64,000 nt of DNA from Nitrospirota bacterium (GCA_963840455.1 CAWIYV010000009.1:288001-352000); one strand, 5' to 3'; positions 5,894-64,000 are shown, numbered from the stretch's first letter. The notes: generated by a model not told the origin, from the letters alone. Numbers and translations are program-made.

Positions 5894-6271
5894 ATGAATA
5901 ATAGCGGAACAAGAAGGGTGCTGATCTACGACGAAGCGGGTTTCTCCCGGGTCTGTTCCGCCCTCCTGGAGATGTCGGGATGCGCCACGGACATCATGGG
6001 TGACTCGTCCGGCAAACTGAACAGCTCCGATATCGGCGTATTCATCACCAGCTATCCTTATGGAGCGTTCATGCTCGATGAAGTGAAGAAGCGCAGCATC
6101 CCGGTGATCGTGCTGTTCGACAACCTCGATGCGGGGTTCATCGATGTGCTGCATACGTACGACAATCTCTACTGTATGATCAAGCCTCTCGATTATGATA
6201 GGTTCAAAGGTTTGGTGCAGCAGCTGCTGAGCGGCGAACAGGTATCGCGAGAGGATTTCAACAGCATATGA
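5894..6271 (+). CDS. Degenerate receiver (REC)-like protein
   Basis: RRVLIYDE (beta1), IGVFITSYP (Ser at the phospho-Asp position), IPVIVL, YCMIKPLD. Confidence 0.7.
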   Translation: MNNSGTRRVLIYDEAGFSRVCSALLEMSGCATDIMGDSSGKLNSSDIGVFITSYPYGAFMLDEVKKRSIPVIVLFDNLDAGFIDVLHTYDNLYCMIKPLDYDRFKGLVQQLLSGEQVSREDFNSI

Positions 6272-12921: not shown

Positions 12922-13036
12922 ATCCAGGAGCGAGCGCATTCCCCTTAGCTTGCCGCGGGGTTAGCGAGCGATTAGAACAAAGAGTACTACCGTGAGGATC
13001 GAAGATTCCCTGCAGCTTGCTGCAGGGAGCTTCAAT
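12920..13036 (-). mobile_element. 117-bp two-hairpin repeat element, copy 2 (inverted)
   Basis: Reverse complement matches 11269-11385 at 110 of 117 positions by manual alignment. Confidence 0.75.
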
Positions 13037-13076
13037 CGGGCGGAAGCAGGTCGTCCAGCCCTGCTCCGAGGAAGAA

Positions 13077-16000: not shown

Positions 16001-19000
16001 GACGGTCCTCGGCACAAGCACTTTGTCTGGCAGCTCTGCCACGTTCAGCACTGCGGCGCTGGCTGTTGGACCCCACTCGATAACGGCAGCCTACGGCGGG
16101 AACGCGAACTTCGGCGCATCGACATCGTCTCCAATTACCCAGTACGTGTCGAATGCCGCGACGACGACGGTCGTCACGTCCAATCTCAACCCGTCAACGT
16201 ATGGCGTTTCCGTGACCTTGACGTCGACGGTAACACCATCGACGGCGACCGGGACCGTGACGTTCAGTGACGGTGCGACGGTCCTCGGCACCGGCAGCCT
16301 GTCGGGCGGCATTGCCACGTTCAGCACTGCGGCGCTTGCCGGCGGACCCCACTCGATTACGGCGGTTTACGGCGGGAACGCGAACTTTGCGGCATCGACA
16401 TCGGCTCCCATCACCCAGACGGTGAACCCGGCGGCGACGACGACGGTCGTCACATCCAATTCCAACCCGTCGGCCTTCGGCGCTCCGGTGATCTTCACGG
16501 CCACGGTCAGTGCCCCGACGGCGACCGGGACCGTGACGTTCAGTGACGGTGGCGTGGTCCTCGGCACCGGCAGCCTGTCGGGCGGCATTGCAACGTTCAG
16601 CACTGCGGCGCTTGCCGGCGGACCCCACTCGATTACGGCGGCCTACGGCGGGAACGCGAACTTCGGGGCATCGACATCGGCTCCCATTACCCAGAACGTG
16701 AACCTGGCCGCGACAACGACGGTCGTCACATCCAATCTCAACCCGTCGGCCTTCGGCGCTTCCGTGATCTTCACGGCCACGGTCAGTGCCCCGACGGCGA
16801 CCGGGACCGTGACGTTCAGTGACGGTGCGACGGTCCTCGGCACCGGCAGCCTGTCGGGCGGCACTGCCACATTCAGCACTGCCACGCTTGCTTTCGGTGC
16901 CCACTCGATAACGGCGGCCTACGGCGGGAACGCGAACTTCGCTGCATCGACATCAGCTCCCATTACCCAGAACGTGAACCTGGCCGCGACAACGACGGTC
17001 GTCACGTCCAGTCTCAACCCGTCGACGTACGGCGCTTCGGTGATCTTCACGGCGACGGTCAGTGCCCCGACGGCGACCGGGACCGTGACGTTCAGTGACG
17101 GTGCGACGGTCCTCGGCACGGGCAGTCTGTCGGGCGGCACTGCCACGTTCAGCACTGCGGCGCTTGCCGGCGGACCCCACTCGATAACAGCTGCCTACGG
17201 CGGGAACGCGAACTTCGGCGCATCGACATCGGCTCCCATCACCCAGACGGTGAATCCGGCGGCAACGACGACGGTCGTCACGTCCAATCTCAACCCGTCG
17301 ACGTACGGCGCTGCGGTGATCTTCATGGCGACGGTCAGTGCCCCGACGGCGACCGGGACCGTGACGTTCAGTGACGGTGCGACGGTCCTCGGCACCGGCA
17401 GCCTGTCGGGCGGCACTGCAACGTTCAGCACCGCGGCGCTTGCCGGCGGACCCCACTCGATAACAGCGGCCTACGGCGGGAGCGCGAACTTCGGCGCATC
17501 GACATCGCCTTCCATCACCCAAACCGTGAACCCGGCGGCGACGACGACGGTCGTCACATCCAATTCCAACCCGTCGGCCTTCGGCGCTTCCGTGACCTTC
17601 ACGGCCACGGTCAGCGCCTCGACGGCGACCGGGACCGTGACGTTCAGGGACGGTGCGACGGTCCTCGGCACCGGCAATCTGTCGGGCGGCACTGCCACGT
17701 TCAGCACTGCGGCGCTTGCTGTTGGCCCCCACGTGATAACGGCTGCCTACGGCGGGAACGCGAATTTCGCTGCATCGACATCAGCTGACATCACGCAGAA
17801 CGTGTCGAATGCCGCGACGACGACGGTTGTCACGTCCAATCCCAACCCGTCGACGTACGGCGCTTCCGTGGTCTTCACGGCCACAGTCACACCATCGACG
17901 GCGACCGGGACCGTGACATTCAGGGACGGTGCTACCGACATCGGAATCGGCACCCTGTCAGGAGGCACGGCAACCTTTGCTACTGCGAGTCTTGGCGGGG
18001 GGGTCCACTCGATAAGGGCGGTCTATAGTGGCGATACAAGTTACATAGCATCAACATCATCGCCTCTTGCGCAGGAAGTTGATCCGGCCGCGACGACGAC
18101 GGTCGTCACGTCCAGTCTCAACCCATCGACGTACGGCGCTTCCGTGACCTTGACGTCGACGGTCACACCATCGACGGCGACCGGGACCGTGACGTTCAAG
18201 GACGGAGCGACGGTCCTCGGCACCGGCAGCCTGTCGGGCGGCACTGCCACGTTCAGCACTGCGGCGCTTGCTGTTGGCCCGCACTCCATAACTGCGGCCT
18301 ACGGCGGCAGCGCGAACTTCACGACATCGACATCTGCTCCCATCACCCAGACCGTGAACCCGGCGACAACGACGACAGTCGTCACGTCCAATTCCAACCC
18401 GTCGACGTACGGCGCTTCTGTGACCTTCACGGCCACGGTCACCCCGTCGACGGCGACCGGGACCGTGACGTTCAATGACGGTGCGGCGGTCCTCGGAACC
18501 GGCAGCCTGTCGGCTGGCATTGCCACGTTCAGCACTGCGGCGCTTGCCGGCGGAGCCCATTCGATAACGGCAGCCTACGGCGGGAGCACGAACTTCACGA
18601 CATCGACATCAGCTGCCATCACCCAGACCGTGAACCCTGCGGTGACGACGACGGTCGTCGCGTCCAATCTCAACCCGTCTGCCTCCGGCGCTTCCGTGAC
18701 CTTCACGGCCACGGTCAGTGCTCCCGCGGCGACCGGATCCCTGACGTTCTATGTCGATGCGACGGTCCTCGGCACCGGCAGCCTGTCGGGCGGTCAGGCA
18801 AGCTTAACAACATCGCTCCTTCCTGTTGGTCCACACTCAATAACAGCGGCCTACGGCGGGAACGCGAACTTCGCGCCTTCGACATCAACACCAATCACCC
18901 AGAACGTGAACCCAGTGGTGACGCCGTCGGCCGGCACGAACGGGGCCATCAGCCCAAACACCCCGCAGACGGTGAATCACGGCAGCACGACGGTCTTCAC

Positions 19001-19526
19001 GGTCACACCGGCCACGGGATATACGGCCGCGGTGGGCGGGACCTGCGGCGGAACGCTGGTCGGCACAACGTACACGACGAACGCGATCACGGCAAACTGC
19101 ACGGTAGCGGCGACCTTCGCGATCAACACCTTCACGGTCTCGACATCGGCTCCTGCGGCCGAGGGGAAGTTCACACCGGCATCGCAGGTGGTGAACTACG
19201 GCAGTACCACGACTTTTACGGTCGATGCTAAAAGCCTGTACTATATTACGTCCGTGAGCGGTTGCGGCGGAACGCCATTCAACAACACCGACCCCACGGT
19301 GCTGACGTATCAGTACACAACAGGTGCGATTTCAGCGGACTGCACGGTAACCGCAACCTACGACCTCGTCACCGCCGCGCTCGTCGGTGCCACGCAGGGG
19401 ATCGGGTTCGGGAGCCTCGGCGCGATGTCTTTCCTCTTGAACCACAAGCTGTTCGGCAATCTGTTCAGGCGGAGGCGCAAACAGAATGGCAGCCGCGACA
19501 ACCTTTCAAAAAAGGTTCGCGATTAA
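13077..19526 (+). CDS. Giant Ig-like repeat surface lipoprotein / adhesin (~2150 aa)
   Basis: Signal peptide with lipobox-like FLTT-C; three SbsA/Big_5-like domains; ~17 Big_3-like domains; two Cys-containing small beta domains; C-terminal hydrophobic segment plus RRRRK. Confidence 0.9.
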   Translation: MMTRHNTTMRKAAVIAMLVMSMAPFLTTCGRGAPPPKEDFIPPTVLATTPQDGFMEFPVGDAVKITFSEEMDPATINAQTIVLTSSTGTGPVSGSVLYGNATAVFQAAQPLEEGTLHTVTISAKVADKSGNFMGRDYSFSFVTQLYPSVLSTVPGDSGVNVPVNQNFSITFSKQINPLTLNFSLVSDRTGTIPLNSPTTSDSRNFLIIPNVPPRNWLDPDTRYTAKVSAGVEDYKYPVPNIMQQDYIWSFTTGSAPDSTPPQVHVTDPDNGAVEVSVTPMIQVVFSEALSTSSTPTLKLFSAGTNTILCSRVTSTDTKYFDYLVQPAVPQLNYFKQYTATVSSAGIMDTSGNPMTGDYSWTFTTVRASTTTSISVPDPVPFGNVNVTVTVLSSAGTPTPTGNVTLSTAPSPTVSLTQPLNSSGVAVFTITNPSVSVYHTLNATYSQQGIFSASAAASGFSVGAAGSTTAVASSSPTSTFNNSVTFTATVTPPAATGSVTFYDNGIWLGSDDTLFNGTAVYSTATLTTGIHAITARYNGDGNYGPSTSPAITQTVNRAATTTVVTSSPNPSEFNAATTFTATITSTETGTVTFKDGATVLGTGIMSGSQAVFSTSVLSVGTHTITATYGGSANYAGSTSANYIHTVSKIQTTTSINVPANNPYSNVTVTVNVMSSFGTPTTGNMTLSTAPFPTMSQTLPLNISGSAVFTIPTPSVNIYHTLNATYVPLASSVYAGSNGSGGFSVGAAGSTTAVTSSSPTSTFGASVTFTATVTPTAATGTVTFYDSGSTWLGTGALAAGTATFSTSALVAGSHTITAVYQGDGNYAGSTSPGIIQTVNPTATTTAVTSSSPTSTFGAPVTFTAAVTPTAATGTVTFSDGATVLGTGSLSGGIATFSTAALAVGPHSITAAYGGIANYAASTSAAITQAVGLAPTQTFVTSNPNPSIFGDSVIFTATVSETVSAATATGTVTFRDGATVLGTSTLSGSSATFSTAALAVGPHSITAAYGGNANFGASTSSPITQYVSNAATTTVVTSNLNPSTYGVSVTLTSTVTPSTATGTVTFSDGATVLGTGSLSGGIATFSTAALAGGPHSITAVYGGNANFAASTSAPITQTVNPAATTTVVTSNSNPSAFGAPVIFTATVSAPTATGTVTFSDGGVVLGTGSLSGGIATFSTAALAGGPHSITAAYGGNANFGASTSAPITQNVNLAATTTVVTSNLNPSAFGASVIFTATVSAPTATGTVTFSDGATVLGTGSLSGGTATFSTATLAFGAHSITAAYGGNANFAASTSAPITQNVNLAATTTVVTSSLNPSTYGASVIFTATVSAPTATGTVTFSDGATVLGTGSLSGGTATFSTAALAGGPHSITAAYGGNANFGASTSAPITQTVNPAATTTVVTSNLNPSTYGAAVIFMATVSAPTATGTVTFSDGATVLGTGSLSGGTATFSTAALAGGPHSITAAYGGSANFGASTSPSITQTVNPAATTTVVTSNSNPSAFGASVTFTATVSASTATGTVTFRDGATVLGTGNLSGGTATFSTAALAVGPHVITAAYGGNANFAASTSADITQNVSNAATTTVVTSNPNPSTYGASVVFTATVTPSTATGTVTFRDGATDIGIGTLSGGTATFATASLGGGVHSIRAVYSGDTSYIASTSSPLAQEVDPAATTTVVTSSLNPSTYGASVTLTSTVTPSTATGTVTFKDGATVLGTGSLSGGTATFSTAALAVGPHSITAAYGGSANFTTSTSAPITQTVNPATTTTVVTSNSNPSTYGASVTFTATVTPSTATGTVTFNDGAAVLGTGSLSAGIATFSTAALAGGAHSITAAYGGSTNFTTSTSAAITQTVNPAVTTTVVASNLNPSASGASVTFTATVSAPAATGSLTFYVDATVLGTGSLSGGQASLTTSLLPVGPHSITAAYGGNANFAPSTSTPITQNVNPVVTPSAGTNGAISPNTPQTVNHGSTTVFTVTPATGYTAAVGGTCGGTLVGTTYTTNAITANCTVAATFAINTFTVSTSAPAAEGKFTPASQVVNYGSTTTFTVDAKSLYYITSVSGCGGTPFNNTDPTVLTYQYTTGAISADCTVTATYDLVTAALVGATQGIGFGSLGAMSFLLNHKLFGNLFRRRRKQNGSRDNLSKKVRD
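15300..18912 (+). repeat. Array of ~13 tandem 276-bp (92-aa) Ig-domain repeats
   Basis: Antisense ORF coordinates step by exactly 276 bp (16091, 16367, 16643, 16919, 17195, 17471, 17747); recurring GCGACCGGGACCGTGACGTTC. Confidence 0.93.
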
Positions 19527-52728: not shown

Positions 52729-53044
52729 CCGTCGCGATCAGTGGAAAGATCCCAAAAAGAGCTGCGGAGACAGCTGGCGTGCCGACGGGAGAGAGAGGAT
52801 CAGCTGTTCTTCAGGCGGAACAAAACAGGGACCGAGAAGAAAAAGCATGAACGTATCCGAAATAGTTCTTGATAGTTCCTAAAGTTGAGGAATATAATAG
52901 TAGCGGGAATAGAGAACAAGCAGCGAAAGACGGGATTCGGAAGATGTGCACGCTGTGGCATCAAGCATGATCCGCTGATCGATCAGCGTACCTGACACAG
53001 GGTCCCCCTTTGTACTGTTGGAAGAGCGGCCTTGTCTGTTATGT

Positions 53045-53422
53045 TTAGCTGATGAGCTTGCTGACCACAGCCGCGTAATCGCTCTCATACCCAGACGTGT
53101 CGTAGGCCGTTACGGTGAAATAGTATGTCTGTCCCTTGGTGAGACCAACGACATTGTAGGTGGTCACAGCGCCCACGACGATGGAGGTATAAGCACCGGG
53201 AGTGGTCCCGTAATACACCTTAAACCCCGCCAGATCGTTGAGTGGAGTTCCATCCACATTGGTCGTCGGCGGTGACCATGCCAGGGTCGCCGATCCATGG
53301 GTATTGTTTGCAGTCGATGGAGGCGTTGTACCTGATGGAGGCGTTGTATCTGTCGTGGTTGCGCCGCCACCGCAACCGAAGAGCGCAACGATCACGGCAA
53401 CGAGTGAAGCACGTAAAAGCAT
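53045..53422 (-). CDS. Small lipoprotein with fibronectin type III domain
   Basis: Lipobox LFG-C, T/P linker, ATLAW.PPTTN.DG..L.DLAGFKVYYG...YYFTVTAYD.SG.ES. Confidence 0.88.
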   Translation of the reverse strand: MLLRASLVAVIVALFGCGGGATTTDTTPPSGTTPPSTANNTHGSATLAWSPPTTNVDGTPLNDLAGFKVYYGTTPGAYTSIVVGAVTTYNVVGLTKGQTYYFTVTAYDTSGYESDYAAVVSKLIS

Positions 53423-53629
53423 TCGGGTTCCCCGGATATGCGAACGGTCGGTTTTTCTACCCCGATGGGAACAATCCGTGATGGTAATAAGCGAAGCCAT
53501 AAACAGGCACCTCCGTGTTCAGCGATTATCAGAGTCGTGAAAAAAATTTTCCCAATTCTGAAAGGATATGGATTAAGGGAGCAACTGATTACTGATTACT
53601 GGTGTTACTCCGAATGTTTCATGGAAACT

Positions 53630-53672
53630 ATAGTACGAAATAAACGCATGTACATCTGTGACTGCAATCACA
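53630..53672 (-). promoter_or_regulatory. Class II CRP-type promoter of the FN3 lipoprotein gene
   Basis: Perfect TGTGA-CTGCAA-TCACA at 53657-53672; minus-strand -10 TACTAT at 53635-53630 places the box centre at -41.5. Confidence 0.75.
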
Positions 53673-53839
53673 TTGCTGAAAAATATCTTATTATGGGCGT
53701 GGCGCATAACGCATTGATATGTAAGAGTAAACAACGAAAGTATCAAATGCTCTACCCGTAAATTCGCCTGTTTGCATCTTAGTGCGGTTTCTTGCCCTCA
53801 CAGCACAGTTCACGTGTCAATAATGCGGTTCTCGCTAAA

Positions 53840-53861
53840 AATACGGGTATAATACGGGTAT
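53840..53861. repeat. 11-bp tandem direct repeat containing TATAAT, upstream of the Crp-family gene
   Basis: AATACGGGTAT twice; the junction forms TATAAT at 53848-53853. Confidence 0.7.
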
Positions 53862-53908
53862 AGACAGGGGAAGTCGAGATCGTTAAGTCTGTCAGTTGGC
53901 TACACGCT

Positions 53909-54685
53909 ATGCATAGCCCCACAATAAAAAAAACGAGCAGGAAACGTAAACAGCAGGTCGGGTCTTCTGGCGCTCAGAATCCGGCTTTGAAGATTGCTCA
54001 CGTCAAGCATGCCGAAAATGGTATTTTGCGAAATATAGCGCTTTTTTCTTCTCTTTCCACTAATGAACTGCATGAGATCAGGGAGCACGTCATCCTGCGG
54101 GAATTCAAGAAGAACCAGATAATCCTTGGTGAAGAAGAAACAAGCCAATTCATGTATATCATTATTCGAGGAAAAGTCAAGATTTCTCGCCTGGGAAAAG
54201 AGGGAAAAGAGACGATTCTTTCCATGCATGATGCGGGCGAATTTTTCGGCGAACTATCACTGATCGATGGGAAGACGACTCCGGCCGGTGTCGTCGCGGT
54301 AGAAAATTCCACTGTGGCGATCATATCAAAGCATCATTTTCATTCGCTGCTGTATACGCAGAAACAGGTGCTGGAAAACCTTCTTCAGATACTGTGCTCG
54401 AGGCTTCGGGAAGCATGGCAAAAGATCGAGATGATGAATTTCAACGACGCCTCACAGCGGCTGAAGATGCTCTTGAATATGCTTGCAGAAACCTACGGGG
54501 ATAAGACGTCGGAAGGTACCGTGCTGCGCGTGAGGCTGATCCATCAGGACATGGCCGACATGACCGGTTTGACCCGCGAGACCGTCACGCGGGTACTTGA
54601 TAAATGGAAGAAGACCAGAGAAATCAATATCCTCGAAGGCAAATACATTCGATTGAACCCTGAATTCCATTCGATTCAACTGTAG
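53909..54685 (+). CDS. Crp/Fnr family transcriptional regulator
   Basis: cNMP-binding fold (GEFFGELSLIDG); HTH HQDMADMTGLTRETVTRVL. Confidence 0.93.
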   Translation: MHSPTIKKTSRKRKQQVGSSGAQNPALKIAHVKHAENGILRNIALFSSLSTNELHEIREHVILREFKKNQIILGEEETSQFMYIIIRGKVKISRLGKEGKETILSMHDAGEFFGELSLIDGKTTPAGVVAVENSTVAIISKHHFHSLLYTQKQVLENLLQILCSRLREAWQKIEMMNFNDASQRLKMLLNMLAETYGDKTSEGTVLRVRLIHQDMADMTGLTRETVTRVLDKWKKTREINILEGKYIRLNPEFHSIQL

Positions 54686-54826
54686 CTCTGACGTACCTTG
54701 ACGCAATCAGAACGGGAGCACACCCAGCTGTACTGCTATAAAAAGCGTATCTAAAGGTCGGGAGCGGTAGCGGCCAAGCTAGACAGAGGCCGGGGCCGCG
54801 CCACGTAGTTAAAGGTAACTCCAGCC

Positions 54827-55762
54827 ATGTTCAAAGAGAACAAGCAAAGATCGACTCCTGCAGCGCTCTGGATAGCGGTCATTATCGTTTTGCTCGAGTG
54901 TTCTGTGCTGCACGTTGTTCCTGACGTGTACGCGGCATCCTCGGACGTTGTCGACTTGGGACCTATAACGGTCACTCCGGACCCGTTGTCGAAAGGGCAG
55001 TATCCGATCATTGAAACCCGGGTCAGCAAGGCGCCGAAAGCGGCGGGCGAACATGTTGTAGTCAACATCATTGCAGTCGTGACGCAGCCTGATAATCGGG
55101 TCAAGTCGTGGAACTGGAAGAAGGTCAGTATCTCCCGGGGCGCCGCCAGATTGATAACCATTCCAAAGGAATATGATACTTCGATCGCCGGCACCTATCG
55201 TGTTGAGGTAAACGTATACAGCAATGATATGAAGCGCCGATATGCCAGTCGCTCCCGTTCGTTCACGGTGTCGAAGGAGGAAAAAAAGAAAGGTGCGGCC
55301 ATCGGACCGGCTGGAGCGGAGCGGGAAAGGGTATATGCGGGGCTCGGAATATACGGAAATGCATTGAACCCTGCCGGCGGTGCAACGCTCTTCCTGTGGC
55401 CATCAAGATATATAGGGGTGCAGGCAATATATTCGACCGGAGTCTTTAGCTCGTATGAAGGCCGCTTGCTTGTGAAGGGCGATCTGTCTTCGAAGTATAG
55501 CATCTATGGCGGAATAGGGTATATTCACGTGATGGCGGAAAAGGATGTCATAGGAGTCACAACACGGTTCGAGGACGGAGGGATGAGCGGAGTGGTCGGT
55601 GTGGAAGTATCTCTAGGAAAAAAGGTCCTCCTCTACATTGAATCCAGCGCGGCCAAGATCGACCTGGAACAGACGGTCACCAATGGATCGCAAACGGTGA
55701 ACGCTACCGTGAAGTATGCACCGGTGACGATCGGTATCGGTCTGGTCATGGCGATCTTCTAA
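54827..55762 (+). CDS. Secreted two-domain protein (N-terminal beta-sandwich + C-terminal small outer-membrane beta-barrel)
   Basis: Signal peptide; AGTYRVEV Ig-like strand; C-terminal Gly/aromatic amphipathic strands ending in Phe. Confidence 0.65.
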   Translation: MFKENKQRSTPAALWIAVIIVLLECSVLHVVPDVYAASSDVVDLGPITVTPDPLSKGQYPIIETRVSKAPKAAGEHVVVNIIAVVTQPDNRVKSWNWKKVSISRGAARLITIPKEYDTSIAGTYRVEVNVYSNDMKRRYASRSRSFTVSKEEKKKGAAIGPAGAERERVYAGLGIYGNALNPAGGATLFLWPSRYIGVQAIYSTGVFSSYEGRLLVKGDLSSKYSIYGGIGYIHVMAEKDVIGVTTRFEDGGMSGVVGVEVSLGKKVLLYIESSAAKIDLEQTVTNGSQTVNATVKYAPVTIGIGLVMAIF

Positions 55763-56015
55763 CTGTTGACAGTCATCATGGGATGAAACGATAATCGCAG
55801 GCCTGTGGCAACGGATAGGTAACGATTATGTAACGATGCCGGGGGGGCGAGAGCGGTCCGTCCATGGTTTACCGGTAGACCCCTTATGAAGTCATGCGGC
55901 CGTCATTGCGAGCGAAACAAGACGAACAAGGCGCATGAAACATCGAAATGTCGGAGATCTCTCCGTCTTAAAATTGGTCCTCCCAATGAACAGGAACGAT
56001 GTCGAAAGCGAACAG

Positions 56016-57839
56016 CTAATGTCGGCGTTTATGTGTATCAATGGGATAGGTGATGTTCAAATCAAGGGACGCCATGAGTTGAAAGATCTCAGCTTCGCTA
56101 AGCTGTTTCGCATATGCATGCCGGAGATGTTTGGAGAATGAATCGATCAATGCCAGGGCCTGGTTGTAATCCTGCTCGCTGAAAGGCTCTGAGGAATTCT
56201 TATTGTTCAGGTTAAGCACTCCGATGACGCGGTCATCGATCTTCAGGGGGAGGGACATAAGAGACTTGTTGTTGTATTGAGGAATGCTCTTTTTCGAGAA
56301 ACGTGCATCAGTCTCGACATCGCTGATGAAGAGCGGTTTACCTTCCAGTGCTACCCATCCTGCGATCTTGTCCCCTGGTTTTATGCTGGTCGTCTTGACC
56401 ACCTTGTCATCGAGTCCCCGGGCGCAAGCGACCCTCAACTCTCCAGTTAGGTCATCGCTGAGCATGACCGAGCAAATGTTGATGTCCATGGCATCGGAAA
56501 TAAAGTCGACAAAAAGATCGATGCTTTTGTTGATATAGGCGTTCAAGGTTTCCTTGCGATTGAGAGGGCAGGTCAAGGTGATCCGGGAAGCCGTATTTTC
56601 GTTCTCTGCAGTAATGCTCCAGCGATGGGCGATCGCGGTATTCCTGGCCAGATAGAGCCTGACACGGTCATCAGAGGAACGTGAGGGATACAAGGATGTG
56701 TCGCTATTCAACTGCTGGAGGATGGTGCGCGGCAGCGGCCGAGACAGATCGATGTGGAAAGAGAGCAGATCGTTCGTGCTCGAGACCGACAGGTCTATTG
56801 CATCATCAGGAGAGAGATAATGAGAAAGGCCTATCAACAGGTTCATGAACAATTGAGATATCCTGAGCCTGTCGCCAAGGATCCACATCGGACCGGAAAA
56901 GGGCGCAACGGTAAGCCGTATGCTGCGGGCTGACAATGCCGATTTCAACTGGCCGGCGGGAAGACTGTTCAGGATATCGGCGATATTGATCGGTGATTTA
57001 TCAAGCATGAGGGATTCGTCCTCGACCTCAAGGAACCTGATAAGATTGTCGATCGTGCTGGAAAGATTGCTGGCCTCCGTGGATATGATGCCATTGAACT
57101 CGCGACGTTCGCCTGGCGACGCCGTGTCGTGATTGTCCAGGTAATATATTGCGCCCTTGATCGCGTTGAGCGGTGTGCGGAGTTCGTGGGATATGCTCAT
57201 GAGGAACTCCGTTTTGATGATGTCTGAATCGATCAATCTCCTGTTCATTTGCTCCAGGTCGGCAGCCGCGGATTTCAGCCGGTTCAGCAATGCTGCGTTC
57301 TCGAGCGCGACGGCAGCATTGTTCGCAATGATCTGCAGGAGTTCCAACTCGTCATGCGAGAACGGCGCTCCATCCTTCTTATCGTTGACATTGATAATTC
57401 CTAAGGGACGGTTCCGGAACAAGATAGGACAGGAAATGAAGGAGCGCGTTTTGTAATGGTGCCTATCCGGCGAAAGGAATTCCGGATGCTGGGTTATATC
57501 CTGGACAAGCATGGGCAATCGCTTCTGGAGTATGATGTTTGAGATCGCATCCGCGCCTTGCGAGCCGAAACTGCGTATATATGCCGCATCAAGACCACGA
57601 GAGGAAAGTATGGAGAGGTCACCCCGATCGTTCGCGAGCATAAGAGACCCCGATTCTGCATTAACATATTTAATTGCAATGTCAAGAAGATAGTCGGTAA
57701 GCGAAGCGATCCTGTCAGAAATCACGATGGCGTTCGAGATATCTTGTAGGATCAGATAACGCTTCTTATACAAATCTGCATCGATCATAATCACACCGGG
57801 AAAATCAGACCGCTCCGTGCAGGATGCCGGTATATTCAT
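56016..57839 (-). CDS. GAF-HisKA-(degenerate HATPase)-GAF protein
   Basis: Two GAF domains; H-box SHELRTPLNAIKG; eroded N-box (NLLIGLSHY); no DxGxG or GxGLG. Confidence 0.88.
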   Translation of the reverse strand: MNIPASCTERSDFPGVIMIDADLYKKRYLILQDISNAIVISDRIASLTDYLLDIAIKYVNAESGSLMLANDRGDLSILSSRGLDAAYIRSFGSQGADAISNIILQKRLPMLVQDITQHPEFLSPDRHHYKTRSFISCPILFRNRPLGIINVNDKKDGAPFSHDELELLQIIANNAAVALENAALLNRLKSAAADLEQMNRRLIDSDIIKTEFLMSISHELRTPLNAIKGAIYYLDNHDTASPGERREFNGIISTEASNLSSTIDNLIRFLEVEDESLMLDKSPINIADILNSLPAGQLKSALSARSIRLTVAPFSGPMWILGDRLRISQLFMNLLIGLSHYLSPDDAIDLSVSSTNDLLSFHIDLSRPLPRTILQQLNSDTSLYPSRSSDDRVRLYLARNTAIAHRWSITAENENTASRITLTCPLNRKETLNAYINKSIDLFVDFISDAMDINICSVMLSDDLTGELRVACARGLDDKVVKTTSIKPGDKIAGWVALEGKPLFISDVETDARFSKKSIPQYNNKSLMSLPLKIDDRVIGVLNLNNKNSSEPFSEQDYNQALALIDSFSKHLRHAYAKQLSEAEIFQLMASLDLNITYPIDTHKRRH

Positions 57840-57849
57840 GCTATGTATT

Positions 57850-59169
57850 TTATTGTGTTTTCAGATGGTGGTACAGGGCCTTCCGGGAGATACCCAGTTT
57901 TCTCGCCGCCGCTGATTTGTTCCCGTTGCATGCGCTCAAGGCGTCTTGAATGGCCTGTGTTTCGAGCGAACGCAACGACTGAACGCCATCTCCCTCTGTA
58001 TTGTTCGCGTTATAGGTCCGGATCTCATCAGGAAGATGTTTGATGGAGACCCGTGGGCCCGGAGCGATTACAACGGCGTGCTCTATGGCATTCTTCAATT
58101 GACGAACATTGCCCGGCCACGGATGGGCGGTCAGCACATCAAAGATATCCTCAGAGAAAATGAGATGGCGGGAATCGCGTTCGCAGAATTTGCTCAGAAA
58201 ATGGGTTGCCAGCACAGGGATGTCCTCCTTTCGCTCGCGCAAGGGAGGCAGGTCGATGCAGACGACGTTGATCCGATAGAAGAGATCACTCCGGAACCTA
58301 CCCGCCTCCATCTCGCGAAAGAGGTCCCTGTTGGTCGAGGTGATGAGACGGAAATCGATATCGATGTCGATCTTTCTGCTGCTCCCCAGACGCTGTACTT
58401 GACGCTCCTGGAGAACGCGAAGCAGCTTTGCCTGTAGTGCGGGGTCCATTTCTCCGATCTCATCGAGGAACAGCGTTCCTCCGGCGGATTCTTCGAACTT
58501 GCCGGAACGGCTTGCAGTGGCTCCGGTGAACGCGCCTTTTTCGTATCCAAAGAGCTCGGATTCCAGCAGGTCCCGCGGGATCGCTGCGCAATTGACGGCA
58601 ACAAATGGTCTGTCGCGTCTCACACTGTGATAGTGAAGATATTTTGCGATGACCTCTTTGCCGGTGCCGGTCTCACCTGTGAGGAGGACGCTTGTTTCCT
58701 TGTCCTTGATCGTGGAGACAGTCTTATAGACACGCATCATCGCGTCCGACTTGCTTTCCGGCAAGGCATCCCCATTCGGAAGCTGGGAATTGACGTCTTG
58801 CTTGCTCTGGATGATCGCGCTGAGGAGGATCTGCTTCAGCTTCTGATAATCCGGCGGTTTAACGAAATAATAGAATGCTCCCTTCGATAAAGCGGCGACG
58901 GCAGAATCTATCTTCCCGTATGCGGTCAAGAACATCACCGGGATATGCGGATAATAAGTGTTTACATGGTCGAAGAGCTGGTAGCCGTCCTTACCCGGCA
59001 TCTTGATATCCGTGATGATCGCATCGACCGGGTTCCGCTTGATCAGGTTGAGTGCAGAGTCGACGCACATGGCCTCGAGGACCGAGTACTTATCAGCTCT
59101 GAGGATCGCGGACAGGACCCTTGTGGCGTTCGGCTCATCATCGACAAGTAGGACAGAGGCTTTCTTCAT
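57850..59169 (-). CDS. Sigma-54-dependent response regulator (NtrC family: REC-AAA-HTH)
   Basis: LLVDDE, TDIKMP, GETGTGKE, GAFTGA, LFLDEI, WPGNVRQL, Fis-type HTH. Confidence 0.95.
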   Translation of the reverse strand: MKKASVLLVDDEPNATRVLSAILRADKYSVLEAMCVDSALNLIKRNPVDAIITDIKMPGKDGYQLFDHVNTYYPHIPVMFLTAYGKIDSAVAALSKGAFYYFVKPPDYQKLKQILLSAIIQSKQDVNSQLPNGDALPESKSDAMMRVYKTVSTIKDKETSVLLTGETGTGKEVIAKYLHYHSVRRDRPFVAVNCAAIPRDLLESELFGYEKGAFTGATASRSGKFEESAGGTLFLDEIGEMDPALQAKLLRVLQERQVQRLGSSRKIDIDIDFRLITSTNRDLFREMEAGRFRSDLFYRINVVCIDLPPLRERKEDIPVLATHFLSKFCERDSRHLIFSEDIFDVLTAHPWPGNVRQLKNAIEHAVVIAPGPRVSIKHLPDEIRTYNANNTEGDGVQSLRSLETQAIQDALSACNGNKSAAARKLGISRKALYHHLKTQ

Positions 59170-60188
59170 AGGGAATCACCTTCCTTAATATCTTTCACGG
59201 GCAGCAAGAACGTGACTGTCGTGCCCTTGCCTTTTTCCCCATGTATCTTCAGATGCCCTTTGTAGTATTTGATGATCTCATCGGCGAGGAACAAACCGAA
59301 GCCGCGGCCCTGTCCCCTGGTATGCTGGTCAAGGACGGCAGATTGCGAGGAAAGATCGAGGCCCGCACCGGTGTCGGAGATATCTATCGCGATGCAGGAT
59401 GCGGGGGGGCACGATCTCAGGGCTGTTCTGATCGTGACCGTCCCCCCCGATGTCATCGCCTCGATGGAATTGTTGATGACGTTCAAAAGCGCCTGTTCCA
59501 GATGAAAGGAGCTGATTTCGATCGGGGGTATATCACCGAGAACGTATTCGCAGCGGATGTCACGAGTGTGAGTCTGGAGCGAAATGAGGACCTTGATCTT
59601 TTCTATCAGCTCGTTGACATTGACAAATGAGACGTCGCTGTCTAAGGTCGTTGTGGTCAAAAAGCGTGATATGAAGTTCTCGAGACGGGAGATCTCCGCC
59701 TCAAGGATCTCCATGAACTCAAACATGGGTTTTTCATGCGAGTATCGCTCACGAAGGTACACGACCGCTCCCTTGATCGCATTCAACGGGTTCCTGACGC
59801 CATGTGCGAGCGTGGCGGCAATCTTTCCGATCGCGATGAGCTTTTGCGCATCGATCAATTGCTGTCCAACCGAACAAGGTTCGGAAGGAACCAGCACGAT
59901 TTGAGCGTGATGGCCTGAACCGTTCGAGTTCCGGATCGGAGCGATCTTGATATCGGCCTCGCGATAATGCGAAAGACACCGGAAATGGCACTGCTTCAGG
60001 TTGACGGCCCGACGTCTTTTGAGAACCTCTCCTACCGCTTCTTTGTCATGCACCAGGAACGGTGGAAAGAGATCGGTATACTTCTTTCCTACGGCGTGAG
60101 AGGTATCCGCACCCGTGAGCATCTTCAGGTCGTCATTCCACGAGCGGATGCGCAAGTTCCTGTCGACAGTAAAAGTGAGTTCTTTCAT
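59166..60188 (-). CDS. Cytoplasmic PAS-domain sensor histidine kinase
   Basis: PAS-like N-terminus; H-box AHGVRNPLNAIKG; N-box NVINNSIEA; G1 DTGAG; G2 GRGFGL. Confidence 0.92.
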   Translation of the reverse strand: MKELTFTVDRNLRIRSWNDDLKMLTGADTSHAVGKKYTDLFPPFLVHDKEAVGEVLKRRRAVNLKQCHFRCLSHYREADIKIAPIRNSNGSGHHAQIVLVPSEPCSVGQQLIDAQKLIAIGKIAATLAHGVRNPLNAIKGAVVYLRERYSHEKPMFEFMEILEAEISRLENFISRFLTTTTLDSDVSFVNVNELIEKIKVLISLQTHTRDIRCEYVLGDIPPIEISSFHLEQALLNVINNSIEAMTSGGTVTIRTALRSCPPASCIAIDISDTGAGLDLSSQSAVLDQHTRGQGRGFGLFLADEIIKYYKGHLKIHGEKGKGTTVTFLLPVKDIKEGDSL

Positions 60189-61246
60189 GGGTGCTAGGTG
60201 GTAAACAGTAGATTCGCATAACCTTGAATTAACTGTCGTTCAATGACAATTTTATGCATAATGATGTGTATCTAATAAATCCCCGGTCGAGTATAAAATA
60301 AAGAGAACGTATTATAGCACAAATATATCTATTACCAATACCCGACAAAGGGTATTTTTAGGGTATTGAACATGCGACAATCATTATTAAGTACTAATTA
60401 TAGCACATATATTCCAATATAAACAATAAGATAATAAATATCTGGCAAGGTGCCATTCAAGTCATTGAAAAATATATAATAATAATTAAGTATTAGCGAA
60501 CTAGCGTCTCAGATATACTATACCGTTGGGTCTGAACATATCGTCAAATCGTGATCACCACGCGTCATTCGTATGATCAAAGATCCATCATGGTCTTTAG
60601 ATCCAATATAATCAGCGTTATCTGCACGCCATCGGTTACGATGCAGAAGATCCTAGATATATTAATAGTTTCACTTCATAAATATTAATAGTATAGCACA
60701 GCTTATTGTGTGACGTGTGTGTCCATAAGCGCTAAAGTAGTCGAAATCGCAATTAAAGGTCGACATTATTTTAGAATTTGTCCATGAAGTCTCAGATAAG
60801 CAACAGTTTCGTACAGAATGCATAGAACGTACTTGTTTAAGTGCTATGTCACGTACGATCATTTGGGTTATGGAAGTCAGCAAATTCCTAGGAGGCATCA
60901 AGGAGAGCGGAGCAGCTAAGGTGAGGGTGAATATGCTGAGCTCGTCCGCATTGGCATATTTGGCATATCATATGAGGATGGAGCTAGACCGTTCTATGAG
61001 CCGTGGACAACGGCGGGGGATCTCCGGTAGGGACATGATGATGCTTCACCTCATCTCTGAATGTATCGTATCGTTCCAACGGGATGTGGAAAACGATGGC
61101 CGTTCAGCTTGACCCCATCCTACCTATTGTCACTGCCAGGAATCTCGATCTCTCCATGCCAATACATTTGACAAGGTCCGATCTGCTCGTTCATTTTGCC
61201 TAGGAGATATATCCATGGTGTTCAAAATTGATATCCGGAGGCGACG

Positions 61247-62710
61247 ATGTACCGTAGGAATCTCTTAAATGAAACCGACAGGCTCAATGCGCTCAAAAAG
61301 CTTGTGCATGATCTGACCGAAGCTCGTCCTGGTCGAGCGGTTTCGGTTCTCTCTCGGGACCCGTTGACCGGTTCGTTCCATGGCCTGCCCGTCGACCGCC
61401 GATTCGATTTCCCTGGTATGGATTTCCTGGACCGGACGGATCCTCTCCTCGGTCGGTTGCTTGCGGGTGAGGAATGGGTGCATAGGGAAAGCAAACATGG
61501 TTCGCATTTTGATGACGGAGGGACGGGGGGCACATTGGAAACCGTGTTTCCGATTGTCGTAAACGGATACATCGATCATGTGCTCATGATCAAGGGTGAA
61601 AATTTGTCTGATAGTGATTGCCGCTTGATCGGAGCATATTGCGGGCAGACCGCGCTTAATCTCGAGACCCTCGCTATGCACGTGAACCTCAATCGCAAGA
61701 TCGAACGTCTTGCTTCTCTGGTAAGCCTGGTTGATGACCTTTCCATCGAGCAGAATTACCGTAACCTGCTCCAGACGGTGCTTGACAGGTCAACGGAGCT
61801 TCTTCTGGCAGAGCAGGGCTCGATCATGCTCATAGAGAAAGAGACCGATCAACTCCTGCTCGAAGTATCAAAGGGTGGGCGAAAAGAACAGGATAAGCGA
61901 GTACGGGTCTCCAGGGGTGTTGGGATCGCAGGCGGGGTCGCAGCGTCGGGAGAGCCGCTCCTTGTTGAGGACATCGAACACGATTCTCGTGTTGGCAGGA
62001 GGAACCAGGAAAAATACAAGTCTGCATCCTTTGTCAGCGTGCCGCTCAAGATAGGCCATCGCGTTGTAGGAGTTATGAATTTCAATGATAAGCGAGCGGG
62101 AGAGCTCTTCGATGATGTGGACCTTAGTCTTGCTCAGACCTGCGCATCCCATGCAGCTCTTGTCCTTGATCGAAAGCAGATCTATGAGCAGACGGAGAAA
62201 TTGACCCAACAGGCTACGATCGATGATCTGACCGGTCTTCTCAACAGGGGGTGCTTGCTGAGAAGGCTGAGGGAGGAACTGGCGCGGTCTGATCGTTACG
62301 CGAAGATGATGAGTCTTGTCATGCTGGATATCGACGGATTCAAGGCCATAAACGACCAGTTCGGACATGCGAGAGGAGACCTCGTTTTGCGGCGGATAGC
62401 GGAGGTGATGACAAGCACCGTACGGTCCATCGACATTGTCGGACGTTATGGTGGAGATGAGTTCCTTATTATTCTTCCGGAAACCGACACGTTTTTTGCT
62501 GCGCATATGGCAGAACGGGTCCGATCCAATATCGAGAAAGCCTACATTTCTCGAGAGACCAGCGATCGCATCGTGAACAAGGTCACCTCGAGCATAGGTA
62601 TCGCAACATTCCCGTCGCACGGTACAAGCCCGGAAGTGCTGATTGCCAATGCTGATGAGGCTCTTTACAGGGCAAAGGCCGGTGGCAAGAACCAGGTCGT
62701 TGTGTATTGA
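61247..62710 (+). CDS. GAF-domain diguanylate cyclase
   Basis: DDLTGLLNR, MLDIDGFKAINDQFGH..GD, I-site RSID, intact GGDEF, ADEALYRAK; GGAGG RBS. Confidence 0.95.
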   Translation: MYRRNLLNETDRLNALKKLVHDLTEARPGRAVSVLSRDPLTGSFHGLPVDRRFDFPGMDFLDRTDPLLGRLLAGEEWVHRESKHGSHFDDGGTGGTLETVFPIVVNGYIDHVLMIKGENLSDSDCRLIGAYCGQTALNLETLAMHVNLNRKIERLASLVSLVDDLSIEQNYRNLLQTVLDRSTELLLAEQGSIMLIEKETDQLLLEVSKGGRKEQDKRVRVSRGVGIAGGVAASGEPLLVEDIEHDSRVGRRNQEKYKSASFVSVPLKIGHRVVGVMNFNDKRAGELFDDVDLSLAQTCASHAALVLDRKQIYEQTEKLTQQATIDDLTGLLNRGCLLRRLREELARSDRYAKMMSLVMLDIDGFKAINDQFGHARGDLVLRRIAEVMTSTVRSIDIVGRYGGDEFLIILPETDTFFAAHMAERVRSNIEKAYISRETSDRIVNKVTSSIGIATFPSHGTSPEVLIANADEALYRAKAGGKNQVVVY

Positions 62711-63444
62711 GATCTCCCGGCTCCATCAGAACATCATCTATCGTTTTTCCAACGGGCCACAGTTATGCCGCTCTTCACGTTTCGGCGTTCCCCGGAGCTC
62801 ATGATCAACCCGTCATTGCTCATAGGCGGTCCGGTTCATAGTTCAGGGCCATGATCTGATCCCTTTGTTCTGTCGCCGCGTTCATCCGAACCCAAGGCCT
62901 GTCCATCTCTCCGCTCCTCTTCTTGTTGTCTTCCGGGAAGAGAGCTCCTCTGCAATATATCGAACCACACTGTTCGCATTGTGCATACACGACCGTCATC
63001 GGCATCCATCCTGGCACTCCATCCTGTGATGCCAAAATGATTATGACTTGATTCGCAGAAATAGAGATCCTATTTCCCCTTGCAATGCTCGATCATGATG
63101 GGAGGGCATTGCTGCGGGAAAAGACATGATCACCATGAGCCGGCTGTACGCGATCGCTGCTGAGAATGAGAGGGATGGCGCCGGATAGGCTGGTGGCAAT
63201 GCCATATAGGCCTTGCTTTTTCTTCGACCATCCTGTATTATATATTTTATTCAGATCAACCGGCGGAGCTCGTTGTTCAGGCCCGTGCTTTTGCAGCCGA
63301 TCTTGCTGACCCCCACTACAGGACATTATCGAGGGCTATCAGAAAAGGTATTCTGATGGCCTTTTTGTTTGTTCCATGCTGCCGCACATCCAGCGACCGA
63401 AGCGTGCAGTAATCCCAGAACGTCGCAAAGAAAGCAGGTTGTAC

Positions 63445-64000
63445 GTGAATTTCAGTTCCTTCAAGCTCCATCAGCAGATCATGGCCGGCGTCGAGGCTGC
63501 CGGCTACATCACCCCGACGCCCATCCAGAAACAGGCAATCCCGCCGGTCATGGAGGGCAAGGATGTCATGGGCCTCGCCCAGACAGGCACCGGCAAGACC
63601 GCGGCCTTCGTGCTGCCGATCCTGGAGCGGCTGCTTAGCGGGCCGCGCGGGAAGGTCCGCGCCCTCATCATAGCACCAACGCGCGAGCTAGCAGAGCAGA
63701 TCAACGACAACATCATCGAGTTAGGCAGGAAGACCGGCATCCGGAGCACCACGGTCTACGGCGGCGTGGGCCTGAACCCGCAGATCCAGAAGCTGCGCGG
63801 AGGCACCGAGATCGTCGTCGCCTGTCCGGGCCGTCTGCTCGACCACCTGAACCAGAAGAACGCAGACCTGTCGCACCTCGAGGTGCTGGTGCTGGACGAG
63901 GCGGACCGCATGTTCGACATGGGCTTCCTGCCCGACATCCGCAGGATATTGAAGTACGTGCCCGTGAAGCGCCAGACCTTGCTGTTCTCGGCCACCATGC
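63445..64000 (+). CDS. rhlE: DEAD-box RNA helicase (RhlE-like), truncated by the window end
   Basis: Read directly from the sequence (absent from the ORF track): GTG start, PTPIQ, AQTGTGKT, PTRELA, LDEADRMFDMGF, FSATM. Confidence 0.93.
   Translation, partial: MNFSSFKLHQQIMAGVEAAGYITPTPIQKQAIPPVMEGKDVMGLAQTGTGKTAAFVLPILERLLSGPRGKVRALIIAPTRELAEQINDNIIELGRKTGIRSTTVYGGVGLNPQIQKLRGGTEIVVACPGRLLDHLNQKNADLSHLEVLVLDEADRMFDMGFLPDIRRILKYVPVKRQTLLFSATM

Follow-up and report, generated by a model that had tools for sequence, protein, structure and literature searches.

Two histidine kinase-like proteins with opposite defects are encoded on either side of a single σ54-dependent activator at positions 56016–60188 of a 64,000-nucleotide stretch of DNA from a Nitrospirota bacterium (GCA_963840455.1 CAWIYV010000009.1:288001-352000; the whole stretch is referred to as the window, and positions are counted from its first letter). 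Do these proteins make up one kinase that has been split in two, or does each act on the activator in its own way? An earlier note on this DNA had offered both a heterodimeric split kinase and a kinase accompanied by a phosphatase or phosphotransferase dedicated to that kinase's regulator, and the latter appears to fit better. The PAS kinase and the activator would form the core pair, with the GAF protein, a pseudokinase, as an accessory that brings a second DHp domain to the same regulator, because the pair survives alone and pseudokinases that have lost the ATP site almost never occur in genomes without the kinase; we give this reading somewhat less than an even chance. An obligate split kinase is disfavoured.

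The interval is filled, by open reading frame (ORF) calling, with three co-oriented genes on the minus strand, and the note's description of two kinase-like genes flanking one activator is borne out. They encode a PAS sensor histidine kinase of 340 amino acids (aa) with a His-Gly H-box (59166..60188; ORF, Pfam PAS, HisKA and HATPase_c, and the same Met start in orthologs), an NtrC-type σ54 activator of 439 aa (57850..59169; Pfam and motifs in the sequence) and a pseudokinase of 607 aa with the order GAF, DHp, CA-like domain without ATP motifs, GAF (56016..57839; Pfam, ortholog alignments and an AlphaFold2 model). The kinase and activator genes overlap by 4 bp and the GAF-protein gene begins 10 bp past the activator stop; the three genes are one operon, with the kinase gene first. 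A short upstream ORF in another frame (MHKIVIERQ...) had suggested a truncated or frameshifted PAS N-terminus, which is rejected on the grounds of the single Met start shared by all orthologs.

The middle gene encodes a complete NtrC-type activator, consisting of a receiver with its acceptor Asp, an AAA+ domain with GAFTGA and a Fis-type helix-turn-helix. Pfam matches Response_reg at 89.7, Sigma54_activat at 226.9 and HTH_8 at 45 bits, together with the AAA lid, and the motifs DDEP, TDIKMPG, GETGTGKE and GAFTGA are readable. The activator is not PrsR, as it scores 357.4 bits against a TIGR02915 cut-off of 502.6, compared with 679.5 for the true PrsR of a related genome (G046).

The PAS kinase is made up of a PAS domain (residues 4–95; 59904..60179, minus strand, as are all domains of the operon; Pfam PF00989, 21.9 bits, slightly below the cut-off of 22.6), a DHp/HisKA domain (residues 121–184; 59637..59828; PF00512, 32.8 bits against a cut-off of 26.9) and a catalytic ATP-binding domain (residues 229–332; 59193..59504; HATPase_c, 64.1 bits) with intact N, G1 (DTGAG) and G2 (GRGFGL) boxes. 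Residues 128–145 are translated as AHGVRNPLNAIKGAVVYL and include His129 and Gly130, whose codons (59799..59804) give, by translation and homolog conservation, the phospho-acceptor His followed by Gly in place of Glu/Asp. The note had described the protein in these terms, and the exact string it quoted, the ATP-binding domain and Gly130 at H+1 (the position after the phospho-acceptor) are all present. Asn is kept at H+4. A regular expression (regex) finds 47 HisKA-type H-boxes in the 4.03-Mb genome of the same organism, and that of the PAS kinase is the sole one with a non-acidic H+1.

Glycine at H+1 is present in 120 of 120 listed homologs with 43–94% identity (119 by regex, the 120th, P0039, read from the alignment) and in 80 of 80 loci from species-representative genomes. 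These loci are mostly from Nitrospirota, with others from Geobacter hydrogenophilus DSM 13691, other Geobacteraceae, Desulfuromonadales and one "Betaproteobacteria" metagenome-assembled genome. Across 15 diverse homologs (43–74% identity) His129, N236, N240, D272, G274, G276, G294, G296 and G298 are invariant. So are W17, C71 and C105, of which the cysteines may point to an input linked to redox state or a cofactor. A library clustered at 50% identity gave 77 representatives with E≤1e-30; at H+1, 58 of these have G, 9 have E, 5 have S, 2 have N, and C and D occur once each, the remaining one being a fragment. The representatives at ranks 78–150 carry E (68), D (1) or G (2), with 2 unmatched. 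This survey points to loss of the acid for a small residue as the conserved trait, with normal His-Glu kinases as the nearest relatives. The nearest solved structures are ZraS, KinB and ThkA, each with E no higher than 2e-17, and the ZraS and KinB alignments show His-Glu. The window kinase thus belongs to an extensive, conserved clade of soluble HisKA kinases that have another residue in place of the acidic H+1, Gly in this case, and the pattern of conservation indicates that His-Gly is selected, not accidental. The window kinase falls below the NCBIfam cut-offs for NtrB (70 against 240 bits), AtoS (168 against 646), ZraS (116 against 479) and PrsK (58.9 against 300), and the name NtrB/GlnL given to it by one source is rejected on the first of these scores. 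Among P0128, P0196, P0180, P0189 and P0201, which lie within or beside the His-Gly family, some combine the same helix with His-Asp or His-Glu. They also include a distinct type of His-Gly kinase, which reads GLAHGIGTPLNV and whose neighbour in the hit list has His-Glu.

The acidic H+1 residue supports autophosphorylation, as the earlier note held, and this agrees with Willett and Kirby (2012, PMC3510030), in which the E372A, D, G and Q variants of CrdS, an NtrB-type kinase with LAHEIKNPL, are all kinase-negative and phosphatase-positive. The same study gives the same loss of kinase and retention of phosphatase activity for HK853 E261A and two other kinases, and reports that the H+4 Asn of CrdS is required for phosphatase activity. 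The acidic H+1 rule is perhaps not valid for every DHp type, according to a 2026 preprint. Nature thus provides, in the His-Gly family, a large clade of kinases that are intact except for a residue found to be required in four mutagenised kinases of one study. Either an alternative self-phosphorylation chemistry or partner dependence would follow, and each would revise the textbook HisKA mechanism; Geobacter hydrogenophilus DSM 13691 is a cultured host.

The third protein has the converse defect. Its DHp/HisKA domain (residues 209–269; 57033..57215; PF00512, 39 bits) carries a canonical H-box, with His218-Glu219 encoded at 57183-57188 and residues 217–234, which include both, reading SHELRTPLNAIKGAIYYL; Thr is kept at H+4. 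The domain is preceded by a GAF domain (residues 45–180; 57300..57707; Pfam GAF/GAF_2) and followed by a CA-like alpha/beta domain (residues 282–425; 56565..56996; defined by ortholog motifs, model confidence and Foldseek) without N, G1 or G2 motifs, and by a second, C-terminal GAF domain (residues 444–576; 56112..56510; Pfam GAF_3 at 444–560 and the model). No HATPase_c match is found by Pfam in the window protein at E≤0.1; its N-box Asn is replaced by Gly (NLLIGLSHY), and LSRPLP and RLYLAR stand at the G1 and G2 positions. The note had recognised the first GAF domain, the canonical H-box and the loss of the ATP motifs, all of which stand, and had overlooked the second GAF domain; its word "decayed" for the ATPase domain does not hold, since this domain is conserved, confidently modelled and has motifs of its own (LxRxLP, KLYLAR and HRW).

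All three ATP motifs are replaced in 37 of 37 orthologs (at least 40% identity; adjacent to or far from the kinase operon; ~600 aa or ~750–780 aa long), the N-box Asn by Gly or Ser, G1 by L-x-R-x-L-P and G2 by KLYLA[RK], and SHELR[TS]P[LM]N is kept in the same 37 of 37. In an alignment of 27 pseudokinases S217, H218, E219, L220, R221, P223, N225 and G229 are invariant. The lone H-box exception seen is the G019 ortholog (L029:1834-3702), which reads SHGLRT; in the G019 operon both partners, kinase and pseudokinase, therefore have His-Gly. Conservation on both sides, which the note had named as a check, rules out decay or pseudogene formation as the cause of either the kinase H+1 change or the loss of the ATP site. 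The AlphaFold2 model has a mean predicted local distance difference test (pLDDT) score of 76.5, with the blocks of residues 282–425 mostly at 80–93, and runs from the GAF domain through a long helix into DHp helix 1, then helix 2, the CA-like alpha/beta domain, a linker helix and the second GAF domain. Its core is matched by Foldseek to HK853, WalK, DivL (4q20) and RetS (6dk7). Distant relatives with 30–35% identity (G029, G038 and G030) keep HATPase_c by Pfam, at 61 and 100 bits; their ATP motifs are partly degenerate in G029 and G038 and intact in G030. In the last of these (L033) two overlapping ORFs make up the outgroup GAF-kinase-GAF-HD-GYP gene, as the result of a frameshift or an assembly error. 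The GAF protein is thus, as judged from alignments and the model, a conserved pseudokinase with an invariant His-Glu DHp domain and a folded CA-like domain devoid of ATP motifs. It is predicted to be functional and phospho-competent because the degenerate motifs are themselves conserved, H218 and E219 are invariant, the fold is confident and the outgroups retain HATPase_c.

All four long orthologs scanned carry HD_5/HD-GYP at the C-terminus (100–123 bits), and one that was read through shows HHERYDGTGYPDGL; the HHE...GYP motif is intact. Pfam finds no HD_5/HD-GYP in the window pseudokinase, which has lost the c-di-GMP phosphodiesterase domain that most of its relatives carry.

The two proteins also resemble each other in the helix that follows the phospho-acceptor. 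The 8-mer PLNAIKGA, which the note had pointed out, occurs in both, and over H+5 to H+17 they are mutual best matches among the 47 H-boxes of the genome, with 10 of 13 positions identical, a level attained by just 2 of 1081 pairs. Laub laboratory work reportedly established that DHp helix 1 sets regulator specificity. The match is unusual and not unique, because a third kinase of the same genome reaches 8 of 13 and kinases of the usual His-Glu type elsewhere, such as P0196 and P0258, carry the NPLNAIKGA helix too. The H-box types themselves differ, with AH..RNPL in the PAS kinase and SHELRTPL in the pseudokinase. Prediction of a complex between kinase residues 105–340 and pseudokinase residues 186–432, each with its alignment, scored 0.22 against a mark of 0.32 and counts neither for nor against binding.

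How tightly are the genes held together? In 57 of the 80 loci the gene immediately after the kinase is that of a σ54 regulator. Where at least 2 kb of sequence is available beyond the regulator (44 loci), the pseudokinase adjoins it in 18 and does not in 26; kinase and pseudokinase genes are tightly linked on the same strand in 16 loci. The three-gene order, with short spacers, is kept in the window organism's family (G001, G006, G016, G019 and G023), and 19 of the 24 genomes lacking adjacency have a full or near full-length pseudokinase ortholog elsewhere. Across 401 genomes of the phylum, which include related genomes and are thus not independent, 39 have both genes, 14 the kinase only, 8 the pseudokinase only and 340 neither, with presence defined by E≤1e-50 for the kinase (53 genomes) and E≤1e-40 for the pseudokinase (47 genomes). 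Co-occurrence recurs in eight families and presence is patchy within each. The coupling of the two families that the note implied is therefore seen, in linkage or co-occurrence and in matching DHp helices.

The exceptions define the limits of this coupling. Eight of the 14 kinase-only genomes (G010, G221, G229, G258, G273, G323, G343 and G415) are at least 95% complete, and the remaining six are 83–93% complete or have a match that touches a contig end. A query of the DHp and CA-like domains against these eight and four further genomes retrieved only generic kinases and no pseudokinase ortholog (0 of 12), and tblastn found no pseudokinase remnant after the regulator in L047 (G010). Three of the 39 genomes with both genes (G015, G214 and G335) have a pseudokinase that is cut short or interrupted; in G015 (L032) a TAA breaks the pseudokinase and only two pieces of the regulator are left, but the kinase is intact. 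Four of the eight pseudokinase-only genomes hold a member of the outgroup subfamily, in which all three copies read (G029, G038 and G030) show HATPase_c or its motifs, the fourth being G070. The gene starts within 900 bp of a contig end in G137 and G189 and is truncated in G311, which leaves G181 (99% complete), where the pseudokinase is genuine and a His-Gly kinase was not detected. The two families tend to occur together, without an obligate tie.

What, then, would each protein do? In the reading that we prefer, which puts the kinase–regulator pair at the core and gives the pseudokinase an accessory role, both DHp domains would dock on the receiver of the one activator. The PAS protein, which by its domain matches is the sole member of the trio with a catalytic ATP-binding domain, would work with the activator alone and autophosphorylate without the usual general base, or slowly. 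The pseudokinase, under GAF control, would take the phosphoryl group from the activator as a phosphatase or phosphoryl sink, and would so add a second input, probably tied to cyclic di-GMP (c-di-GMP), to the control of polysaccharide genes. Retention in both proteins of the H+4 Thr/Asn, which PMC3510030 reports to be needed by the CrdS phosphatase, counts in its favour. Several points weigh against it. CrdS E372G is kinase-dead in the same paper, so that the PAS kinase should not autophosphorylate at all, yet some weak activity is needed here. The H+1 Glu is needed for kinase and not for phosphatase activity, and its invariance in a protein without an ATP site suggests that the His itself is phosphorylated, which a pure phosphatase would not explain; the phosphate would then come either in trans from the PAS kinase or by back-transfer from the regulator. 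Because the genes have a common neighbourhood, they may occur together through inheritance of one island instead of through interaction, and the count is further weakened by the relatedness of the genomes; G181 has a true pseudokinase but no His-Gly kinase that was found, and the specificity role of helix 1 enters as a premise.

The invariant His-Glu pair in a protein without an ATP site is also the starting point for a split kinase, in which the PAS ATP domain would phosphorylate His218, within a DHp heterodimer or between homodimers, with Glu219 as the general base and the activator as the next acceptor, the PAS and GAF inputs forming an AND gate. The two defects are complementary and both are conserved, the E-to-G change in CrdS kills the kinase and spares the phosphatase (PMC3510030), and the matching DHp helices, the tight same-strand linkage in 16 loci and the near confinement of dead-CA pseudokinases to genomes with a His-Gly kinase would all be accounted for. 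Mutually dependent halves, the strong form of the note's proposal, are argued against by the eight near-complete genomes in which kinase and regulator persist without a pseudokinase, by the 26 of 44 loci in which the pseudokinase is not adjacent and by the broken pseudokinases of G015, G214 and G335, where the kinase is kept; moreover, the G019 pseudokinase is itself His-Gly, G181 has a pseudokinase without a kinase, and the kinase's own invariant His is not required by the model. We regard a split kinase as rather unlikely. Transfer in trans need not be obligate, and the ATP domain of the His-Gly kinase could facultatively load the His-Glu of the pseudokinase, which would in turn feed the σ54 activator. 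This is also unlikely in our judgement; if true, long-form pseudokinases would switch their own HD-GYP domains, and phosphorelay and c-di-GMP control of exopolysaccharide would be joined by phosphorylation between kinases.

The CrdS result can also be taken at face value, since E372G is kinase-negative and phosphatase-positive (PMC3510030) and the H+4 Asn is retained here. The PAS protein would then be a nucleotide-binding sensor with phosphatase activity only, the phosphoryl donor would be another kinase or acetyl phosphate, and the pseudokinase would be a GAF-regulated c-di-GMP or scaffold protein, in keeping with the HD-GYP domain, with its intact HHE...GYP, in most of its relatives. PrsK/PrsR are also present in some loci; however, the window organism's own genome has neither above cut-off, the strict conservation of the ATP boxes and the constant pairing with the regulator point to a cognate kinase, and the window pseudokinase, which is without HD-GYP, still has the invariant His-Glu. 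We consider this assignment quite improbable. Least probable of all, with only a slim chance, is the absence of any direct link, the genes being independent regulators in one polysaccharide island and the helix match a matter of common descent within a kinase subfamily. Ordinary His-Glu kinases do carry NPLNAIKGA (P0196, P0258, and 8 of 13 positions in the third kinase of the genome), locus membership alone can yield co-occurrence, and neither gene strictly needs the other. Against this, the two proteins have different H-box types and are still mutual best matches among 47 H-boxes, their genes are repeatedly joined in one operon with short spacers in the window organism's family, and the helix match holds at a distance of 40 kb in G046.

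The genes presumably under control are suggested by the surroundings, as the system belongs to XrtA/PEP-CTERM exopolysaccharide loci. A complete locus of this kind occupies 6268-52728 of the window. Its export protein, chain-length determinant, tyrosine autokinase, ATPase, UpxY antiterminator, TIGR03016 outer-membrane protein, priming transferase and flippase are over their cut-offs, and the FemAB-like and amidotransferase-like genes score under theirs; a 2169-aa ORF within it (13017-19526, plus strand) has no NCBIfam match at E≤1e-20. No PrsK or PrsR scores above cut-off anywhere in the organism's genome. In other genomes the kinase-regulator pair heads such loci, with a small receiver-like protein, PrsT and export genes next in order. 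G046 (L135-L137, G046:C1:233000-283000) has a 42-kb locus with the His-Gly kinase and regulator at its head and an exosortase within; at its tail are a true PrsK (566 bits) and PrsR (679 bits), then a convergent pseudokinase-HD-GYP gene. This pseudokinase is 40 kb from the kinase and its helix, PLNSIKGAVYYL, still matches that of the His-Gly kinase, PLNAIKGAIIYL, and is unrelated to the PrsK H-box, VIHDLKNLAYTL.

The small receiver-like protein (cluster c2) also opens the window's polysaccharide locus (5909..6262, plus strand; tblastn at 44–47% identity and clusters), 50 kb from the operon, and its members are found in 27 of the 80 related loci, mostly just after the regulator (e.g. L135:4402-4803 and L082:1928-2326). 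It is ~130 aa long, has no Pfam or NCBIfam match and is 30% identical to the activator's receiver, with an acidic D-E pair and an acceptor position that appears to be replaced (LIITSYPYG); this makes it a candidate pseudo-receiver, with the potential to compete for both DHp domains. Divergent from the operon is a GAF-GGDEF diguanylate cyclase gene (cluster c10; 61247..62710, plus strand; NCBIfam GGDEF, 180 bits), of a type present in 11 of the 80 related loci. The HD-GYP and GGDEF neighbours would provide the system with built-in links to c-di-GMP.

A 1-kb AT-rich spacer (60189-61246; GC ~0.40–0.45 against 0.52 around it), which holds an 88-aa ORF at 60846-61112, separates this gene from the operon. 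A σ70-like promoter match, TTGGTA-16-TATAAT with TG (60311..60338, minus strand), lies ~120 bp upstream of the kinase start and comes from a consensus scan only, in which the region gave 5 sites against 7.3 expected. A σ54 scan with the consensus TGGCAC-N5-TTGCW (2 mismatches) gave 13 matches against 26 expected by chance and nothing usable. The Rfam scan of 53000-64000 returned no match at E≤1, so the AT-rich leader is taken to have no riboswitch.

Pseudo-histidine kinases and split kinases are already known as kinds. The literature searched, supplements not included, contains no description of a natural His-Gly HisKA clade, of a GAF-DHp-pseudoCA-GAF(-HD-GYP) family or of their pairing, and the system appears to be an XrtA/PEP-CTERM locus regulator without a description there. 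The pseudokinase is comparable to DivL of Caulobacter, RocA of group A Streptococcus, a pseudokinase variant of ChrS and PsmA of Streptomyces, which are reported to be non-catalytic and to act as modulators of a true two-component pathway. In DivL the His is replaced by Tyr. In contrast, the window pseudokinase keeps an invariant His-Glu and has lost only the ATP site, and its partner kinase has the converse defect.

Its architecture, a DHp bundle with an ATP-less CA-like domain, fits the Spo0B/ChpT kind. Spo0B and ChpT consist of a DHp-like four-helix bundle with an ATP-less CA-like domain and a His that accepts and passes on phosphoryl groups; they are small, have no sensor domains and act inside phosphorelays. 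The pseudokinase differs from them in its two GAF domains, often an HD-GYP domain, and a HisKA H-box with a phosphatase motif. RetS and GacS of Pseudomonas are two kinase-like proteins whose DHp domains act on one output, and the pseudokinase core is matched structurally by that of RetS (6dk7), among others. In the split kinases HK1/HK2-TcrA and CheA3/CheA4 of Rhodobacter, one protein binds ATP and the other is the phospho-acceptor. Unlike these domain splits, both proteins here have a DHp and CA-like core and sensors of their own, and their pairing is not obligate. The M. tuberculosis HK1/HK2-TcrA system is listed in PMC9321153.

As regards the locus, PrsK/PrsR/PrsT were defined for PEP-CTERM loci and further regulators were anticipated (Haft et al. 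2006, PMC1569441). PrsK/PrsR resemble the system in being a σ54 two-component pair beside PrsT and XrtA polysaccharide genes; unlike the membrane protein PrsK, the window kinase is a soluble PAS protein, and the two systems coexist in the G046 locus. The core pair itself is like CrdS/CrdA of Myxococcus xanthus and NtrB/NtrC, each a soluble LAH-x-[IV]-[RK]-NPL kinase with an NtrC-type activator (PMC3510030), and the engineered CrdS E372G reported there corresponds to the natural state of the His-Gly family, in which Gly is the wild type across the clade.

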